From the UHGV virus genome UHGV-0144131: a DNA stretch of 39,499 bases. One strand, 5' to 3'. Below, one piece after another: positions 3,550-34,947 of the stretch (position 1 is its first letter; the number at the start of each line of letters is the position of its first letter). Origin of the DNA: a virus. The notes under the pieces were generated by a model, which ran no database searches, was not told the origin of the DNA, and was given only the letters and a program-made list of their open reading frames with translations. A program made the position numbers and the translations under genes.

Positions 3550-4170
3550 ATGGATATTTGGGAAAAAAGTAAAATTATTATATTTTTGCTTTTCGTTATT
3601 CCTGGTTTTATAAGTATGAAAGTTTATAGTGTTATTCATCCTAATACCGCTTTTGATACTTCTAAAGCGATTGTGGAAATTGTTTCTTATAGCTGTATAA
3701 ATTACGCAGTATGGTTTGCTCCTATATATTTTATAGAATCTGAGGGTGTATATCTCAAACATCCTGTTCTTTATTGTGCTTTATACTTGGTGATTTTATT
3801 CATTAGCCCAATATTGTTAACGATATTTTTCTCTTGGATGCGAACTTGGCGTTGGTTATGTAATTATATGCCACATCCTACCGGAAGAGCTTGGGATTAT
3901 TTCTTTGGGTTAAAAGTCCCCTGTTGGATGATTATTACGCTAAAAAATGGTAAAAAAATAGCAGGCAAGTTTGGGGCTAACTCATTTGCTTCCAGTGCAC
4001 CAGAGCCAGAGCAAATTTATCTTGAGGAACATTGGGTTCTAAACGATGATGGGGGATTTGAACGCCCTCGAGTTTCAACATTAGGAATATTAATTTTAGG
4101 TAACGATATAGAAAATTTAGAGTTTTTCCGTTTTGAACTACCAACATGCAATAATGGAGAAAGCAACTGA
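3550..4170 (+). CDS. AT-rich membrane protein of unknown function (accessory cargo)
   Basis: 206 aa; N-terminal half has hydrophobic helices (IIIFLLFVIPGFISMKVYSVI, LYCALYLVILFISPILLTIFFSW), C-terminal half is soluble. Visibly AT-rich and transcribed opposite to the surrounding operon. RBS AGGGG upstream of ATG. Confidence 0.6.
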   Translation: MDIWEKSKIIIFLLFVIPGFISMKVYSVIHPNTAFDTSKAIVEIVSYSCINYAVWFAPIYFIESEGVYLKHPVLYCALYLVILFISPILLTIFFSWMRTWRWLCNYMPHPTGRAWDYFFGLKVPCWMIITLKNGKKIAGKFGANSFASSAPEPEQIYLEEHWVLNDDGGFERPRVSTLGILILGNDIENLEFFRFELPTCNNGESN

Positions 4171-4313
4171 TGTCAGATACCAAAAGAAGTTATAAGGAAG
4201 ATGGATATACCCCTATTGAAAAAGGGTATCAGCCTAAAAATGACTTGGCTAATAATGGTTTTCAACCTTCGAAGCAAACTTCCCAGCCAGCTCCACCACC
4301 CAAAAAACCATAA
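4170..4313 (+). CDS. Small Lys/Pro-rich hypothetical protein, translationally coupled to the membrane protein
   Basis: 47-codon ORF (MSDTKRSYKEDGYTPIEKGYQPKNDLANNGFQPSKQTSQPAPPPKKP) whose ATG overlaps the upstream stop as TGATG. Too short for the supplied ORF track; hand-translated. Confidence 0.3.
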   Translation: MSDTKRSYKEDGYTPIEKGYQPKNDLANNGFQPSKQTSQPAPPPKKP

Positions 4314-4619
4314 CTAAGTATTGGGGGGAATAATTCCCCCCAGCTCTTTGCTATCCAGTACCACCACGGTAAAGCCCAGCTTTCGCAGACGTTCATGTGT
4401 GCGCAACTGGTCAGGTCGTGGTGGTTTGCCGGGGGATTTACATTCAACGAAAACGATGCGACCGCCGGGTAGCAGAACAATGCGATCCGGTACCGAGCGG
4501 CGACCGGGAGATACGAACTTAAAGGCAACCCCGCCAGCTTTTTTCACTTCAGCGACGAGATGCTTTTCGATAAGGCTTTCACGTTCATAGGCCATCATCC
4601 ACCGCCTTACGCTTTTCAC
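4314..4619 (-). CDS. VRR-NUC domain nuclease
   Basis: About 95-101 aa with a PD-(D/E)xK-like core (PDRIVLLPGGRIVFVECKSPGKPPRPDQL), typical of small phage VRR-NUC proteins. The likely start is an internal Met around 4598, which would remove the overlap with the next gene. Confidence 0.7.
   Translation of the reverse strand: MKSVRRWMMAYERESLIEKHLVAEVKKAGGVAFKFVSPGRRSVPDRIVLLPGGRIVFVECKSPGKPPRPDQLRTHERLRKLGFTVVVLDSKELGGIIPPNT
4322..4340. terminator. GC hairpin, candidate bidirectional terminator
   Basis: GGGGGGAATAATTCCCCCC is a perfect inverted repeat between the + strand cassette and the - strand VRR-NUC gene. Confidence 0.4.
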
Positions 4620-4806
4620 GCATGTTCTGCATCAGGCAAGAATCAGCCCGGCGCTCTCTCCAGTCCTGATTAAGTTCGTTACGTGATTCACGGTTTGCTT
4701 TGGCCCAGACCTTCGCCGCCCGGTCATACCCGCCGGACTGCTCAAGGCGCAAAGCCTCCTGTGCAGTCCGATAATAAAGCGGACTGTCCCGATATTTAAA
4801 TGACAT
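4585..4806 (-). CDS. Hypothetical phage protein
   Basis: ORF 4585..4836; I place the start at the internal Met (MSFKYRDSPLYY, 4806) because the longer start lies inside the 4821..4848 hairpin and a GAGG RBS precedes the internal ATG. Confidence 0.5.
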   Translation of the reverse strand: MSFKYRDSPLYYRTAQEALRLEQSGGYDRAAKVWAKANRESRNELNQDWRERRADSCLMQNMREKRKAVDDGL

Positions 4807-4820
4807 AGGGGTTACCTCAA

Positions 4821-4848
4821 ATAAATACCCCTGCATTTGCAGGGGTAT
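4821..4848. terminator. Perfect 13-bp-stem hairpin, candidate bidirectional terminator
   Basis: AAATACCCCTGCA-TT-TGCAGGGGTATTT lies immediately downstream of the TIR-like gene stop on the - strand. Confidence 0.5.
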
Positions 4849-4871
4849 TTACTTTTTAGAAAAATGATTGA

Positions 4872-5633
4872 TTAAGATGAAGCGTTCGCTATTTGAGCTT
4901 CATTAAATGTGAAACCGGCCTGTTTAAGGCGCTGGATTAAGCGAGGTACAGTTTCTCGAACATGATCATTAAAGTTGAGATAAAGAATACCCGCAGCATC
5001 AGAAGGCTGTTCAAGGTGTTGCTTCTGCAAGATGACCACGTTACTGCGGCCGAGTGATGATAACAACATCCCCATTTCTAGAACTACATTTTGACGAGCC
5101 CTGGGCAGGGCTGCTTCTTGACCGTCTCTTTTGGAGTATCCCACATCATCGGGAGTGAGAAGAACAATGCCGAAACGAGTCGCTGTCTGCCCTTGACCAA
5201 TTTCACGCTCCAGTTCTTCAATTATCGTAAGTCCAGTACCACCTGTATTCTGCAAAATAAAATGATCAGGTAACCCAAGCTTATGAAGAATGAGCTCAAG
5301 CTGCTCTTTTGCTGCATGGTCGTGACCGTGAACGATGAAAATCTTTTTGGCTGGCTCTTGAACCGGGGCTGGCTGAACTCGTTGAGCTGGCGCGTTACCC
5401 AAGTGTTCATTAATAATGGCTTCAACCTCTGGTTTTGCCGCTTGTGAGCCTTGAATCAAAATCGTTCCGGTGTGGTAAAGCGTTATGATGGCACCATTAC
5501 TTAAACGATAACAATCATGACCGGCTTTGTTTTCTTCTCCGGTAACATCAAATCCGGATTCGACTAAAAATTGACGAAAAGTTTCGACAGGGTGTGGGTA
5601 TTTGAGAGCCATTTCATTGAGATCCTGCATCAT
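4872..5633 (-). CDS. TIR-like nucleotide-binding domain protein with an N-terminal domain of unknown function
   Basis: 253 aa. The C-terminal ~150 aa begins KKIFIVHGHDHAAKEQLELILHKLGL...GIVLLTPDD, matching my recollection of the TIR-like family (COG4271/PF10137-type: hydrophobic strand + HG+D, conserved Gly, acidic patch). Tandem ATGATG start with AGGA RBS. Confidence 0.55.
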   Translation of the reverse strand: MMQDLNEMALKYPHPVETFRQFLVESGFDVTGEENKAGHDCYRLSNGAIITLYHTGTILIQGSQAAKPEVEAIINEHLGNAPAQRVQPAPVQEPAKKIFIVHGHDHAAKEQLELILHKLGLPDHFILQNTGGTGLTIIEELEREIGQGQTATRFGIVLLTPDDVGYSKRDGQEAALPRARQNVVLEMGMLLSSLGRSNVVILQKQHLEQPSDAAGILYLNFNDHVRETVPRLIQRLKQAGFTFNEAQIANASS

Positions 5634-5686
5634 TATTTTCCTATAAAATAAGCAATATTTAGCAAAGCAGCAATGACAGCGAGCAG

Positions 5687-7762
5687 CTAATCCTTACAGT
5701 AGTGGTACGCCTCAAAACCGCCAGCGTTCAGTGGGATATCGGGCGCCCATTCGGGGTTAGTGGAGAGAAGCGCGGAAAGCACTTTATCGTTGAAATCTTC
5801 TGTGTCAGGTGCTTCGGTGATCACCTCGTCGTGTACCGTCAACACAATGCTGTAACCGGCATCTTCGATAAGCGGCATGTTTCCGGCCAGAACGTCGCGG
5901 GCGGCCGCCTGGGTGACGTTCTCCACCAGCTTTCCGCCGTAGGTTTTGAGTCGTTGCCATTTACGCGAATAAGAGTTAACACCCATATAGGTGATATTCC
6001 CTTTTTCGATAACCGGAGACGGGTAGCATACAGCGCGTCCGGATGGTAGCTGTATGCGCAGCCACGCGCCATCACGTCGGATTTTAAGATAACCGCAATA
6101 CAATGTTTTTTGCGGTGTGGCGATTGCTGTGCGGACAGTGCGCTCCAGCTCGTACCAGAAATCGCAGGTCGCCGGGTGCGCCCTGCGCCACAGGCGCTTG
6201 AGCGAGTCACATGCGATGAATACACGCTCGGAAAGGCCAAAGGTCGACTTACGTTTAACCGATTCGTCGTACCAGCTTTTCGCCTCGCGGATAACATCGC
6301 GGGGAATGTTTGGCAGTGCGGCGTTCGCCAGCTCGTCGAGATCGAGACCGTAAACCAGAGCAAAAGTGATGAAAGCCGATACACCACCTCCATAACCCAG
6401 ACCGAGTTCCATGACTTTACCGATCTGACGCATGTGTTTATCAACATCATCTGGTGCAATATCGAAAGCTTTTGCATACGCCAGTTTATATAAGTCCGGA
6501 CCCGTTCCGGCGTCGTACTCTCTGAATGCATTCAGTTTCCATTCTTCTCCCGCCAGCCATGCCAGCATACGGCCTTCAATGTTTGACAAGTCACTTACCA
6601 CCAGTTTTTTGCCTGTTGGCGCGATAATGCAGCCACGTAACGCTGAACTGGTTAGTTCCATGATATTGTCAAACAGCAGGTCTGCACATCCGGCTTTCAG
6701 TGCTTCGATGCCTTCGTCTATTTGTTCCTGTTTTAGTGAAGGGCGGGGAAGGTTCTGGGGCTGGAATAGCCGTCCGGCCCAACGACCGGTACGTGACGCC
6801 CCGCAGAACTGTAGCGTACCGCGTAAGCGCCCGTCGTGGCTTACGCCTTTCATCAGTGCCTTGTATTTACTGGTGCTGGTAGTACTGGCTTGCAGGCGGA
6901 TAGCCAGCAGTTCTTTCACGGCAGATGGTAAATCGGGGTCGGCAATACGACGTTCCAGAGTACTGCGTTGCATGTCTGGTAGCTCCACACTGTAGGATTC
7001 AACAATGTGCTTAATCAACGCGTCCCGTTGTGTGGCTGCCTGCACTTCGCCATCAGTCATTTCCTGTGTACGCTTTGCCAGGCGCTTTTGCTCCTGGTCT
7101 ACCGCTTCGATCGCAGCGCGCGCGAGTTGCATGTCCATGCAGACGCCCCGGTCGTTGATCTGCTGATCACGATGCCAGAGCGCCAGCTCTGTCCCCTGAT
7201 AATTCCACTTCGGCAGACGTTTATAGACTTCGCGCATTGCCTCGATATCCAGTCCGGCGTAAGCAACAAAGCGCCGCCATTCTTCCGGGTGGGTTTTGCT
7301 GGTGGCACGGCGCAGTTTGCTGTTTTTCGGGCGGGGCTTACAGAACAGCTGGATCAGCGCTTTACCTTCTTTGTCCTTCGCTTTGTCTTGCGGGACGCCG
7401 AGTATTTCGCAGAGTTCCCCCAGAGACCCCGGGAGACCATGCGCCAGCGCCTGTACCATTGTGTCTCGCCAGCGTTTGGCACTACCTGCAACAACACATT
7501 GGGGAGTGTGCAGTAATGCATGGCGCAACATGGTGCGATCGAAATGGCTGTTGTGTGCATATATTAGTACGCTCTCATCGCTGAGAGCTGTCAGTAGTCG
7601 TGTCGGCAAGTTATAGTCTGTGGTTAAATCGTGTACGCTGACGGGGTCTTCGTCGATTGCCCATGCGAATAACATGATTTCGACTCCTTCTGCATAGACA
7701 TGGGTGCCGTTTTTTATTGGGATTTCGCTGAAAGTTTCGAGGTCTAACCAAAGTTTTTGCAT
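5687..7762 (-). CDS. Family-A DNA polymerase with 3'-5' exonuclease domain
   Basis: N-terminus has exo motifs ([16 protein letters not shown]); central and C-terminal parts have Pol A-like motifs ([15 protein letters not shown]). Start set at the ATG at 7762 ([11 protein letters not shown]); the longest ORF begins with TTG at 7804 inside the 7797..7813 hairpin. Confidence 0.85.
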
Positions 7763-7838: not shown

Positions 7839-9341
7839 TTAATATGATAAATAATCATACAAGCATAAAAGTCGCCTGTATTGGGTATCAATTTTATGCC
7901 CTGGTTTTGTTAAATAATCTCGTAGTTGTTTCAATGAAATAGTATCGTTTAGTACGCAATACATAATCGTGTTAGCAACTTTATACTCTTTCGTTTCTTT
8001 TAGTATTTCATCAATAGACACAGCCTCACTCTTACATGTTTTAATTCGAGAAAGGTTACCAATGATTTTATCTAGCTGCCGTTTTCTGTATGTCTCGGTA
8101 TTTTCTAGTTCAGGGCAGATAGAACTAAAAGCGTATATTGGAAAGTGTTCGCTATTAGCTATGGTTTGCTTATTCAGTAATGCGATAAGCTGAGAGTTTG
8201 CTTCGTCAACTATTTTAAAATAGTTCTGTATCATTTCAGATTTTGTTTGATAAACATATTGTACGGTTCTTTCTGAACCAACAGCAATGACCATTTCATC
8301 ATTGCGAAGTTCATCTAAATTTTCTGTAATTTTAACCTTTATCTCACCACCACTTTTGATGGTACTCCAAACTTTTTGAACCTTTCTTATGTCCATTGCG
8401 GATACTGGCAAAACTAGTCCAGAGATGGCATCATATACAGCTTTGTAATTGTTTGTTTTTATTTTGTTTATTCTTATGATAGACATGCCTTCTATATCTA
8501 TGTCATGCTCCGTAATTTCAGTTGACATGCTGTCTTTTTCGTATTCAACCAAAAGGAAATTATCTTTTATCCTTTTTGCAAGTTCGGTATTTAAGTCAAC
8601 GTATGAGAATATGGTTTTTAATAAGTACTTAATGTTTTTATCGCTAATACTATACCCTATAAATATGATAGGGTTGTGTATGAATATTGAGAGTAATTGA
8701 GCGCGAATTAACTCATATTTATTGTCGAAGTTTGCGTAGTCTTCACCTGTGATAATTATGTTGTTAGGATCACTAACACAGCCATGTATTTTGTAAACTG
8801 AACCGTATGGGTTACTTAAAAGAATGTTGTTACCAATCAGTGGGTTAAATTCGAAGATATTCTCTACGAGTTGGTCGTAGTTTGTTGTAATGATGGAGCC
8901 TATGTTTTTTCTTGTTTTTATTAAGCTGTTTATTTCCTCCATCATTGACTCTTTTATCTTTAGGTCTTTAAGTATTGAAGTTAAATAAATTTTGAATCGA
9001 CTTAGTTTTTTTCCTTTTTTCATGTGCTCATAGAAAACATCATTGATGTCTTTGAACTTACCGTTACGGTCTTCTGCCAGCTTTTTATTAAAAATATCTT
9101 CAAGTTTTGTAGCTAAGATATCATATCGATAGTCGTCACCTTCTAGGCTTTCAGCTTTCAAATCGTAGTAAAACTCAGCATTACCGGTTAGTTCCATTGC
9201 GACACTCAAAAGAAGACCATCCCAGCTAAATGAGTTTTCTAGATACCGTAGGCTAAATCCTGTTCCAATGAATAGAACAGGGTGGTTTTTATAGTGACTT
9301 ACAAACTCTTGGATTTCCATACCGATTCTCAAAGTTGACAC
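7839..9341 (-). CDS. SIR2-like (SIR2_2 / ThsA-like) protein, candidate NAD+-consuming defence effector
   Basis: 500 aa. N-terminal ~280 aa carries motifs I associate with defence-type sirtuin domains: glycine-rich loop FIGTGFS, TTNYD, KIHG, then IFIGYSISD. C-terminal ~200 aa is unassigned. Strongly AT-rich; GTG start at 9341 with AGAGG RBS; own terminator at 7792..7818. Confidence 0.7.
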   Translation of the reverse strand: MSTLRIGMEIQEFVSHYKNHPVLFIGTGFSLRYLENSFSWDGLLLSVAMELTGNAEFYYDLKAESLEGDDYRYDILATKLEDIFNKKLAEDRNGKFKDINDVFYEHMKKGKKLSRFKIYLTSILKDLKIKESMMEEINSLIKTRKNIGSIITTNYDQLVENIFEFNPLIGNNILLSNPYGSVYKIHGCVSDPNNIIITGEDYANFDNKYELIRAQLLSIFIHNPIIFIGYSISDKNIKYLLKTIFSYVDLNTELAKRIKDNFLLVEYEKDSMSTEITEHDIDIEGMSIIRINKIKTNNYKAVYDAISGLVLPVSAMDIRKVQKVWSTIKSGGEIKVKITENLDELRNDEMVIAVGSERTVQYVYQTKSEMIQNYFKIVDEANSQLIALLNKQTIANSEHFPIYAFSSICPELENTETYRKRQLDKIIGNLSRIKTCKSEAVSIDEILKETKEYKVANTIMYCVLNDTISLKQLRDYLTKPGHKIDTQYRRLLCLYDYLSY

Positions 9342-32989: not shown

Positions 32990-34057
32990 ATGTCACAGAA
33001 CTGGATGAGACATTTCGAGCTGCAGCTTGTGGACGGGAACGGTCAGGGAATTGAGCTAAGTGATTTCAAAGTCACCTTTACGATCGACTGGTTCAACATC
33101 AGCAGCGCGTCCCGGGTAGGGACTATCAAAATTTATAACCTCTCGGCAGATACTGTGAACCGAATCACCGGGCAGGAATTTTCGAAAGTGCGTCTGATTG
33201 CCGGTTACGACGGTATCGCGCCGGAGGTGTCAGCAAGCGACGTAGGGACCGTGCGGGAAGTTGACGCGGCGGACGTGGGCCAGAGAGATGGCCGCAACTA
33301 CGGACTGATTTTCAGCGGTGAAATTCGCTACTCGGTCACAGGAAAAGACAGTCCGGTTGATTCCTACGTCCTGATTCAGGCAGCAGATACTGATCTGGCT
33401 TTTGCCACCAGTATAACCTCACAGACGCTGGCTGCCGGTTACACGGTCGCTGATGTGAACCGTGCGCTGATGAAAGACTTCGAAGCCAAAGGTGCGACCG
33501 AAGGCCTGACGCCTGAAATGCCTGCTACTGTATTCCCCCGGGGGCGGGTGCTCTTTGGCATGACGCGGCATCTAATGGATAACGTAGCCGGGCAATGTGG
33601 CGCAACATGGCAATTCGTGGATGGTCAGCGCCAGATGGTGGTGAATAATGAATATGTTCACGAAGCGATTGTGCTCAACAGCGCTACCGGGCTTATTGGC
33701 ATGCCGCAGCAGACCATCGGCAACGGCGTAAACGTCCGCGCGCTTATTAATCCGAACATCCGGGTTAATGGGCTCATTCAACTGGATCAGGCTTCCGTAT
33801 ATCGCACCGCGTTGTCGAACAACGATATCGCTATGGCTGGTGGGCAGATCACCGACCAGAACACGGACGGAAATATTACGCTAAGCGGCACCATATCGCA
33901 GCCTGCCAGCATCGCAACGGATGGCGTTTATATTGTGCGCGGGATTATGTACACTGGCGACACAAGGGGCCAGGCGTGGTACATGGATATGATGTGCGAA
34001 GCGCGCGGTGCGGCGGATCTTCGTTCGGCGTCGTCTTTACAGCGTGAGGTAGGATAG
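32990..34057 (+). CDS. Putative baseplate hub protein
   Basis: 355 aa between tape measure and baseplate V/W/J; assigned by position and size. Confidence 0.45.
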   Translation: MSQNWMRHFELQLVDGNGQGIELSDFKVTFTIDWFNISSASRVGTIKIYNLSADTVNRITGQEFSKVRLIAGYDGIAPEVSASDVGTVREVDAADVGQRDGRNYGLIFSGEIRYSVTGKDSPVDSYVLIQAADTDLAFATSITSQTLAAGYTVADVNRALMKDFEAKGATEGLTPEMPATVFPRGRVLFGMTRHLMDNVAGQCGATWQFVDGQRQMVVNNEYVHEAIVLNSATGLIGMPQQTIGNGVNVRALINPNIRVNGLIQLDQASVYRTALSNNDIAMAGGQITDQNTDGNITLSGTISQPASIATDGVYIVRGIMYTGDTRGQAWYMDMMCEARGAADLRSASSLQREVG

Positions 34058-34410
34058 TGAAAAAGTGGATTGTTATTGGACTCTGTTTCCTTCCGGGGTT
34101 CGCATTTGCTGCGAATCCTGGCGGTGTCACGCTTCAGTGTGGTGGCTACAAATTAGAGTTGATTCCTGATTCATTGTTCAGGATTAATGGTGAGACAGTT
34201 ACCTCCCAGAAAATCAAAACGCTCGGCAACGGTAATGGAATGAAGGCGGATATGGGGCTTATGCCAGCCAAAGACGGTAACAATTACGGTTTCGAGTTCA
34301 TTCGCCGTCCGGGTACCGAAACGCGTTTCTTGAATGTCCAACTACTGCAGAACAGCATGGATGCGCCGAGAATCATAGGTTCGTTTCCTTGTAAGAAGGT
34401 TGACGATTAA
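34057..34410 (+). CDS. Small secreted (periplasmic) protein, accessory gene in the tail module
   Basis: 117 aa with a signal peptide (MKKWIVIGLCFLPGFAFA, AxA cleavage motif); GTG start; no resemblance to tail components. Confidence 0.5.
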   Translation: MKKWIVIGLCFLPGFAFAANPGGVTLQCGGYKLELIPDSLFRINGETVTSQKIKTLGNGNGMKADMGLMPAKDGNNYGFEFIRRPGTETRFLNVQLLQNSMDAPRIIGSFPCKKVDD

Positions 34411-34416
34411 TACAAT

Positions 34417-34947
34417 ATGTGCAATCAAAGGAATGAGGCTGTTGGCCTTGAAGTAGATACGATTTTGTCGTACTCGAGAGACAGGTATGAAGAAGTTAAG
34501 ACAACATACAGGCGGTTAGAGGACAAAGCTAATTTTCTTCTTGCTGTGCTTGGTGTTGAGATTTCTGCATTATTAGCCGTTTTTGGGTCCTTTGAGCTGG
34601 GACAACAGTTAAAGACTAGTCTATCCGCAAGATTGTCTCTATTGTGTCTATGTTCATGTTTTGTATGTTTGGTTTTTTGTTTTTATTATTTATGGAAATG
34701 TTGGGAACTTAGAAATATTCCCAAAATGCCTGTGCATCGAACACCTGAACAACATGAATTTCTTCTGAGGGGTAGTAGAGATGACACAGTCAGATTTCAT
34801 TTGATAATGTATGGTAGGGCTATTGATAGAATCGAGAAAATCCATAAAGAAAAATCAGCGTTTGTAAATGAGTTGTTTCGATGGATGGTTATGTCATTTG
34901 TATTTTTTATTATTTCTGTAACGTGCATGTTAATAAGTAAGGTTTGA
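34417..34947 (+). CDS. AT-rich two-helix membrane protein, accessory gene in the tail module
   Basis: 176 aa with hydrophobic helices (FLLAVLGVEISALLAVFG, LSLLCLCSCFVCLVFCFYYLW, WMVMSFVFFIISVTCMLI) and a charged N-terminal helix; visibly lower G+C than the flanking tail genes. Confidence 0.6.
   Translation: MCNQRNEAVGLEVDTILSYSRDRYEEVKTTYRRLEDKANFLLAVLGVEISALLAVFGSFELGQQLKTSLSARLSLLCLCSCFVCLVFCFYYLWKCWELRNIPKMPVHRTPEQHEFLLRGSRDDTVRFHLIMYGRAIDRIEKIHKEKSAFVNELFRWMVMSFVFFIISVTCMLISKV

Follow-up and report, generated by a model that had tools for sequence, protein, structure and literature searches.

A second-messenger-independent, Cap12-type TIR effector with a putative TBP-like sensor domain, carried as optional cargo by an Escherichia coli prophage

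Introduction

The virus genome UHGV-0144131, a stretch of 39,499 nucleotides referred to throughout as the window, is an E. coli prophage inserted beside yfhL, and is found at 99.9% identity in three complete genomes. Directly downstream of its DNA polymerase gene, in the middle of a replication module, lies a gene encoding a TIR domain protein, and the question raised by this locus is what such a protein does there. The protein can be described as a Cap12-type TIR effector, independent of second messengers, in which a TBP-like domain is the putative sensor. It is probably a stand-alone anti-phage NADase, acting through abortive infection or superinfection exclusion and carried by a temperate, myovirus-like prophage as an optional cassette of its early-left (replication) operon. 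The parts of this account shown here are the identities of the two domains, the conserved catalytic residue, the behaviour of the gene as a cassette, the lack of a conserved partner and the exchange of effectors attached to the N-terminal domain.

Results

The C-terminal half is a TIR domain of the Cap12/PycTIR clade

The gene is a single open reading frame (ORF) on the minus strand, at positions 4872..5633 of the window, encoding a protein of 253 amino acids identical to RefSeq WP_021563492.1, which is labelled 'TIR domain-containing protein'. An earlier note on this DNA, made from the sequence alone, had described a tandem ATGATG start, and this is indeed present, with a ribosome-binding site (AGGAAA) 5 nt 5' of the first ATG. 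The peptide quoted in that note, KKIFIVHGHDHAAKEQLELILHKLGL...GIVLLTPDD, spans residues 96-163, and its reading of the C-terminal half as a TIR-like domain of the PF10137 type was borne out by Pfam: the CAP12/Pycsar effector TIR domain matches residues 97-222 (E = 5.8e-31, 107.4 bits against a cutoff of 24.7), covering positions 1-118 of the 119 in the profile.

A family profile built from 40 homologues matches the solved TIR-STING/Cap12 structures 9lmq and 7un8, and the PycTIR structure 8jsj, across the catalytic region. The glutamate of the NVVFEFG motif in 9lmq counts as residue 86, and mutation of this residue (E86A) gives a catalytically dead ElSTING (PMC12421889); its counterpart here is E186, within the motif RQNVVLEMG, which is invariant in all 40 homologues. 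The TIR half as a whole is very strongly conserved in the same alignment, having many invariant residues and the motifs FxVHGHD, EQLEL, GLTIIE, FGIVLxTPDD, RxRQNVVxExGML and PSD. Foldseek likewise returned TIR-STING chains (9lmq) as the best matches to the full-length structural model. Thus the C-terminal half is a TIR domain that belongs to the Cap12/PycTIR clade and retains its catalytic glutamate. The TIR domains of the Cap12/TIR-STING clade are NADases switched on by head-to-tail TIR assembly (PMC12421889; bioRxiv 2026.04.30.722052), and by analogy the domain described here is predicted to be a NADase activated through oligomerisation.

The N-terminal domain resembles that of RNase HIII

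The N-terminal portion had been considered unrecognisable in the earlier note, which put its length at around 100 amino acids. It proved instead to have a fold of the RNase HIII N-domain type, over approximately 75-80 amino acids, followed by a linker of about 15. AlphaFold2 models residues 10-80 with high confidence (pLDDT of approximately 87-95), both in the full-length model and when the domain is folded alone, with the elements ordered beta-alpha-beta4-alpha; this fold and topology are those of the TBP-like, beta-alpha-beta meander-alpha N-domain of RNase HIII. The linker is predicted to be disordered, is unconserved in the alignment of homologues, and varies in both length and sequence across the family. 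By its predicted fold, the N-terminal domain is an RNase HIII-type TBP-like domain, and is a putative sensor.

Sequence comparisons point in the same direction, at scores falling below the curated thresholds. On its N-terminal stretch, the window protein has such matches to both the RNase HIII N-domain of Pfam (DUF3378) and rnhC of NCBIfam, though the score for DUF3378 (PF11858) is 15.5-17.7 bits against a gathering score of 27, and a profile of the domain has a similarly subthreshold match to residues 38-59 of 3vn5. Within the family, RnlA_toxin is matched by six of 22 N-domains and DUF3378 by four of the 22; among 150 distant representatives both recur at subthreshold scores, DUF3378 in three of them. 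When the domain was compared with viral structures (BFVD) by Foldseek, no match was significant: the best had E = 0.015, and an RNase LS-like protein ranked fourth (E = 0.048).

The best structural match is to the RNase HIII N-domain (DUF3378; 4py5, 3vn5 and 2d0a), with which the domain shares a monopartite TBP-like fold and, judged by spacing, the motif aromatic-x-[ST]-G-[KST]-x3-Q-G, located at the hybrid-binding surface of RNase HIII. In the window protein this motif is Y53-x-T55-G56-T57-x3-Q61-G62, which aligns to the Aae segment YYYKTGSLLIQGK, and the best-conserved positions of the domain are Y/F53, T55, G56, T57, Q61 and G62. When isolated, the N-domain of RNase H3 binds RNA/DNA hybrids, and neither dsDNA nor dsRNA; the residues of Ta-RNase H3 that read the hybrid are Tyr43, which stacks on deoxyribose, Ser45 and Ser47, which contact the DNA phosphate, and Gly52, the amide of which contacts the 2'-OH, a role filled by Gln54 in the Bst enzyme (PMC4132731). 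The offsets of +2, +4 and +9 from the aromatic residue are identical in the motif described here and in the Ta-RNase H3 contacts. The domain differs from its RNase HIII counterpart in being fused to a TIR domain, rather than to an RNase H catalytic domain, in being acidic in the window copy, and in falling below the Pfam threshold. By analogy, an RNA/DNA hybrid can be put forward as a tentative candidate for the trigger.

It is also conceivable, if somewhat unlikely, that the protein is a defensive TIR NADase whose N-terminal domain has a phage protein or small molecule as its ligand, or merely autoinhibits or dimerises the TIR domain, such that the likeness to RNase HIII would be one of fold only. 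The acidic to neutral character of the domain and the subthreshold level of the DUF3378 and RnlA_toxin matches would fit such a role, as would the range of ligands served by TBP-like and helix-grip folds; the TBP domains of DNA glycosylases do not touch DNA (PMC3597702). However, the top fold matches of highest sequence identity are RNase H3 structures, the best-conserved residues share their spacing with those contacting the hybrid, and a tie to nucleic acid also exists for the related TBP-like domains of RnlA (PMC3710099).

The N-terminal domain is found with different effectors

An exhaustive profile search with the N-terminal domain alone retrieved 921 cluster representatives at E <= 1e-3, many of which are fragments. 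The domain is joined to a PF10137 TIR domain in 24 of the best 150 representatives. Elsewhere it is found with a seven-helix membrane (7-TM) region (P0204), with a segment matching positions 119-298 of the 630 in the PADLOC dCTP-deaminase defence model (P0207, P0261 and P0190; E values from 1e-46 to 4e-29), and as a tandem duplicate of itself (P0159); further, longer representatives have several other C-termini, which are without a family match. These fusions to a 7-TM region, to a dCTP-deaminase-like segment and to a second copy of the domain appear to be undescribed architectures. A common N-terminal domain combined with exchangeable toxic C-terminal parts is the usual sign of a sensor in single-protein defence systems. 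Hence the fusion of this domain to different types of effector provides indirect support for its acting as a sensor, as the earlier note had suggested it could. TBP-like domains are also found on the HEPN toxins of the RnlA family (PMC3710099) and on bacterial Schlafen nucleases (PMC13056530).

The gene is an optional cassette in the replication module

The gene lies in the replication module DUF2800/DUF2815/PolA/VRR-NUC/SNF2, oriented like the polymerase gene. Its upstream neighbour encodes a family-A DNA polymerase (Pfam DNA_pol_A; 5687..7762/7804, minus strand) and is separated from it by a gap of 53 bp; downstream is the gene for an ANR/PerC-family regulator. The features of the locus are as follows.

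4872..5633, minus strand: complete gene for the TBP-like/TIR protein, an ORF with its stop codon at 4872-4874; PADLOC PDC-S35 matches residues 11-253
5394..5609, minus strand: N-terminal domain (residues ~9-80), a putative sensor; predicted TBP-like fold of the RNase HIII N-domain type
5349..5393, minus strand: linker (residues ~81-95), rich in Pro, Gln and Ala; pLDDT below 50 at residues 81-92, and gap-rich alignment columns
4875..5348, minus strand: C-terminal TIR domain (residues ~96-253), the predicted NADase effector; PF10137 at residues 97-222
5076..5078, minus strand: codon for Glu186 in the motif RQNVVLEMG, predicted to be catalytic from the alignment to 9lmq
4821..4851, terminator-like on both strands: palindromic hairpin with a GC core between A/T runs, inside the segment missing from TIR-less prophages
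5634..5686, minus strand: 53 bp spacer, containing AGGAAA, from the polymerase stop codon to the start of the TIR gene
4820..5687, minus strand: accessory insert (prophage 'moron'), bounded by the blastn breakpoints against three TIR-less prophages (L002, L003 and L004)

Sequences matching the flanking polymerase and ANR-regulator genes are found in 159 of 5,426 complete E. coli genomes, and the TIR gene in 47 of the 5,426, ten of which have the window allele (89-100% DNA identity) and 37 a second allele with 76% DNA identity over the TIR half and approximately 71% protein identity. The position between the polymerase and ANR-regulator genes was the same in all five of the TIR-containing genomes in which it was inspected. 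Prophages without the TIR gene have either an empty slot, in which the start of the ANR regulator directly adjoins the stop codon of the polymerase gene, or one that contains non-coding DNA or a small hypothetical gene; one genome has both the TIR gene and a BRO-N gene in the slot. In blastn comparisons with the TIR-less prophages L002, L003 and L004, homology stops at 4814-4819 and restarts at 5672-5688. The proposal of a discrete cassette in the earlier note is thereby upheld, as these prophages lack almost exactly the interval 4821..5686. The gene is consequently present or absent at a fixed slot in otherwise collinear prophages, as is characteristic of a moron, and its GC content is approximately 44-49%, whereas that of the polymerase gene is 54-57%.

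A second characteristic of morons, a terminator of their own, is provided by the hairpin at 4821-4851. A palindrome scan found 13 pairs around a 4 nt loop at 4822..4851, and the RNA of the coding strand has a folding energy of -26.7 kcal/mol (z = -6.2), none of 200 shuffled sequences being as stable. The perfect 13 bp stem previously placed at 4821..4848 was therefore correct in so far as the palindrome is real, although a 13+2+13 arrangement is sterically impossible and the effective stem is one of 12-16 bp with a 4 nt loop. The hairpin is 21 nt past the stop codon of the TIR gene and 15 nt before the start codon of the ANR regulator (4806). Each of three alleles of the TIR cassette ends in its own hairpin and T-run, and the hairpin sequences differ. 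As the structure lies only 15 nt 5' of the ANR start, termination there would reduce expression of the downstream ANR, VRR-NUC and SNF2 genes. The mechanically called ORF for the regulator (4585..4836, minus strand) starts at an ATG within the hairpin, at 4836; RefSeq instead places the start at 4806, an ATG with a ribosome-binding site of its own (GAGG).

Given this location, the protein might alternatively be an accessory to replication or nucleotide metabolism in the lytic cycle of the prophage, for instance one in which the N-terminal domain targets RNA primers or R-loops and the TIR-like domain processes a nucleotide. The gene does follow the polymerase gene directly, is read in the same direction and lies inside the replication module; its N-terminal domain is similar to the domain with which a replication-associated RNase H binds its substrate; and the induced E. 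coli phages vB_EcoM-689R2, -611R5 and -606R2 have the second allele (71.5% identical) at the same position. Yet only 47 genomes have the TIR gene, compared with the 159 matching the flanking module, which is intact without it, and the family is also found outside phages, in integron-like arrays and defence islands where there is no polymerase gene. An accessory to replication is rendered improbable by these distributions, as well as by the terminator and deviating GC content of the gene, the presence of the N-terminal domain elsewhere on membrane and dCTP-deaminase-type toxic effectors, and the identity of the catalytic motif with that of NADase TIR domains.

A widespread family without a conserved partner

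The two-domain architecture of approximately 250 amino acids is widespread: 3,311 homologues were retrieved at 90% clustering, most with over 90% query coverage at around 50% identity, from Proteobacteria, Acidobacteria and metagenomes. The window protein is a member of the PADLOC phage defence candidate family PDC-S35 (PDLC05003), which matches residues 11-253 over profile positions 3-245 of 245 (E = 1.7e-109). PDC families are defined by their embedding in BREX, DISARM or type I restriction-modification loci, and were released as candidates for functional study (bioRxiv 10.1101/2024.01.29.577857).

In Ralstonia, the homologue adjoins a serine recombinase gene; another adjoins an integrase, together with Mrr and PemK genes, and the island around a further homologue contains DUF4062, a reverse transcriptase and toxin-antitoxin modules of the ParDE/YoeB type. 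In Vibrio parahaemolyticus (L006-L010), the homologue is located in a long run of short genes on the same strand, the layout of which is that of an integron-like cassette array. In Klebsiella sp. Ap-873 (L022, 3500..11500), a 72%-identical TIR homologue sits amid the decayed remains of this same module (polymerase, ANR and VRR-NUC genes), and adjoins a P4-like element (Psu, Ogr/Delta and integrase) bearing an AAA_15/AAA_21 ATPase gene pair; here the TIR gene has survived the decay of the surrounding prophage.

An all-against-all comparison of flanks across six contexts found no conserved neighbour, the TIR gene alone being shared, with the exception of the Klebsiella locus. Nor did Pfam searches find any consistent small partner ORF, such as an antitoxin or regulator, upstream or downstream. 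As no neighbour is kept across contexts, the TIR protein appears to act alone.

These contexts also bear on the idea that the protein is a counter-defence or host-manipulation factor of the phage, for example one consuming NAD-derived immune signals or reprogramming the host. The gene is phage-borne, and viral TIR domains are rare, their role having been called enigmatic in a review (PMC9503650). Nevertheless, the majority of the family is found on chromosomes, or on non-phage elements beside defence genes, and this TIR clade is known solely as a NADase that kills the cell. Limiting superinfection is the role that the review prefers for phage-borne TIR domains (PMC9503650). A counter-defence function is accordingly very improbable.

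The nearby SIR2 gene occurs independently of the TIR gene

A SIR2-family gene encoding 500 amino acids is found at 7839..9341, on the minus strand, and matches the PADLOC candidate family PDC-S25 over its full length (E = 4e-158). Its GC content is 31-37%, compared with approximately 55% in its neighbours, and it occupies a variable slot between the polymerase and DUF2815 genes. Its product matches ThsA models (E = 3.6e-18) over the SIR2 core alone, the C-terminal ~250 amino acids being without a family match.

This arrangement admits a reading in which the TIR gene is the signal-generating half of a Thoeris-like pair, with the SIR2 protein as the NAD-depleting effector. The two genes are 2.2 kb apart in the same operon, both are low-GC inserts, on either side of the polymerase gene, and the SIR2 domain does weakly match ThsA. 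They are, however, in different variable slots with the polymerase gene between them, and the SIR2 gene is present in five of the 5,426 complete E. coli genomes, as against 47 for the TIR gene, with both in just three. Prophages with only the SIR2 gene and prophages with only the TIR gene both exist, and in strain 23CRST009 the SIR2 gene is broken by IS1 whilst the TIR gene is intact. This separate occurrence, and the intact TIR gene beside an interrupted SIR2 gene, make a Thoeris-like partnership unlikely. The clade of the TIR domain is, moreover, that of the Cap12/PycTIR effectors rather than that of ThsB, the ThsA matches are limited to the SIR2 part of the neighbour, and no SLOG match was seen. 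Taken together, a Thoeris-like pairing has a very small chance of being correct, and the tie between the two genes envisaged in the earlier note is not supported by the comparison of genomes.

Membership of known systems

The earlier note had likened the TIR domain to the modules of Thoeris, CBASS and Pycsar; the relationship to the last two holds, at the level of the PF10137 effector clade, whilst the domain is not of the Thoeris ThsB clade. Membership of each system was considered and rejected. For Thoeris, no ThsB model was matched and the SIR2 neighbour occurs independently. For CBASS, the protein obtains 32 bits with the NCBIfam Cap12 models, where the cutoff is 450, and it lacks the pairing of a STING- or SAVED-type cyclic-nucleotide sensor domain with an adjacent CD-NTase gene: the neighbours are the polymerase, ANR regulator and VRR-NUC genes, with no CD-NTase gene and no cyclic-nucleotide step. 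For Pycsar, the PADLOC PycTIR model matches residues 66-233, in the TIR half (E = 3.8e-10), and misses the N-terminal domain, which is not the sensor domain of PycTIR, and there is no pyrimidine cyclase (PycC) gene in the operon.

Among the closest known parallels are nonetheless the Cap12/bacterial TIR-STING effectors of CBASS (7un8 and 9lmq), which share the PF10137 clade, the NVV[FL]E.G motif with its catalytic glutamate, and the combination of one sensor and one TIR domain per polypeptide. They differ in having a C-terminal STING domain, where the sensor of the window protein would be N-terminal and TBP-like. In Cap12/TIR-STING, a ligand-driven filament builds a composite NADase site, and a similar assembly is proposed here by analogy. 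PycTIR of Pycsar (8jsj) is alike in pairing a PF10137 effector with an N-terminal sensor domain. The RnlA protein (RNase LS) of the RnlAB anti-phage toxin-antitoxin system has as its effector a HEPN RNase under the control of the antitoxin RnlB, whereas no antitoxin-like partner is conserved with the TIR gene. SPARTA, composed of a short prokaryotic Argonaute and TIR-APAZ, offers an analogy: recognition of an RNA/DNA heteroduplex leads to oligomerisation of its TIR NADase and abortive infection. SPARTA is, however, a two-protein pAgo complex with a guide RNA and a TIR domain of a different clade, and there is no Argonaute gene at this locus.

Other variable slots in the prophage

A third variable slot, at 3550..4313 (plus strand) between the SNF2 helicase and VRR-NUC genes, contains genes for a DUF6338-family membrane protein (206 amino acids, E = 1.2e-35) and a 47 amino acid ORF, with a GC content of 32-37%. 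In related prophages, this slot has a Dcm methyltransferase or other hypothetical genes, and it may be another accessory or defence cassette. Between this plus-strand cassette and the minus-strand VRR-NUC gene is another strong terminator-like hairpin, at 4321..4343, with ten pairs, six of them G-C.

In the baseplate cluster, positions 34057..34947 (plus strand) form a variable cargo slot containing a 117 amino acid lipoprotein-like ORF and a 176 amino acid ORF with several hydrophobic helices; strain TUM1880 has other genes here, including a YafO-family toxin. Neither ORF had a significant Pfam match, and none was found to SLATT. The 176 amino acid membrane ORF (34417..34947), considered as a SLATT-type partner, was set aside as having no Pfam support.

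Discussion

How the protein would function in defence can be outlined in a model, in which we infer NADase activity, activation driven by oligomerisation, the identity of the trigger and the defence phenotype itself. In an uninfected lysogen, the protein would be monomeric or dimeric, and inactive. On infection, the N-terminal domain would bind a cue, most likely an RNA-containing double-stranded nucleic acid such as the RNA/DNA hybrids of phage replication or transcription. Several copies would align on this polymeric ligand, bringing the TIR domains head-to-tail such that a composite active site is formed; NAD+ would then be hydrolysed and the cell would no longer support phage growth. For the prophage, the benefit would be superinfection exclusion through kin selection, and limiting superinfection is the role favoured by the review of phage-borne TIR domains cited above (PMC9503650).

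Several observations weigh against this account. The N-terminal domain has a net charge of -6 in the window copy, with a family median of -0.5, which is unusual for a nucleic acid binder. The mapping of its residues to those of RNase H3 was inferred from motif spacing rather than from a structural alignment, because a PDB query with the 22-residue Aae motif, made for the Ta-RNase H3 numbering, returned 3vn5 as its sole match. The TIR half of the full-length model is only moderately confident, having a pLDDT of 52-87. A search of a literature library found no experiment on any member of PDC-S35, the term itself occurring in none of its papers, and TIR is not mentioned in the DefensePredictor preprint. 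Finally, the TIR gene is co-oriented with the genes of a lytic replication operon, and a promoter scan of the 53 bp spacer yielded no convincing sigma-70 promoter, which makes expression of the gene in the lysogen uncertain. The nearest match on the minus strand is a weak site (9/12) at 5808..5781, within the polymerase gene, and the number of such sites does not exceed that expected by chance.

The family was already known as the catalogued candidate PDC-S35, of which the window gene is a member; that prediction was made from genomic embedding, with no described mechanism, assignment of the N-terminal domain or swapping of effectors. What is new is the assignment of this domain, its motif resembling that of a hybrid reader, its reuse with other effectors, the exact boundaries of the cassette and its independence from the SIR2 gene. 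As an extension of the model, it might be speculated, with considerable doubt, that the TBP-like domain of approximately 75 amino acids is a general bacterial innate immune sensor of RNA/DNA hybrids, or of other intermediates of phage replication or transcription, that activates whichever effector is fused to it through alignment along the polymer, be it the TIR NADase of the window protein or, elsewhere, a 7-TM membrane protein or a dCTP-deaminase-type module, with RnlA as a distant relative. It might also be speculated that the substrate of the TIR domain is the bound nucleic acid itself, and not free NAD+.

To our knowledge, TIR NADases of the Cap12/PycTIR type have so far been understood as effectors turned on by cyclic-nucleotide second messengers, and we know of no TBP-type reader of RNA/DNA hybrids other than the N-domain of RNase HIII. 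The family described here is a widespread one that has no cyclase, bearing instead a small domain resembling such a reader. The prophage is also a documented instance of a temperate phage in which predicted NAD-targeting genes of both the TIR and SIR2 types are carried independently of each other, at variable slots within the replication operon. Were the N-terminal domain to recognise the trigger, a nucleic acid intermediate of infection would be detected directly by a minimal sensor-effector consisting of this one protein; were the domain a general sensor, it would amount to a one-protein pattern recognition receptor for nucleic acids, operating without an Argonaute, a cyclase or a second messenger. 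Hence a gene of only 253 codons for amino acids makes testable what the proteins of single-gene abortive infection systems sense.

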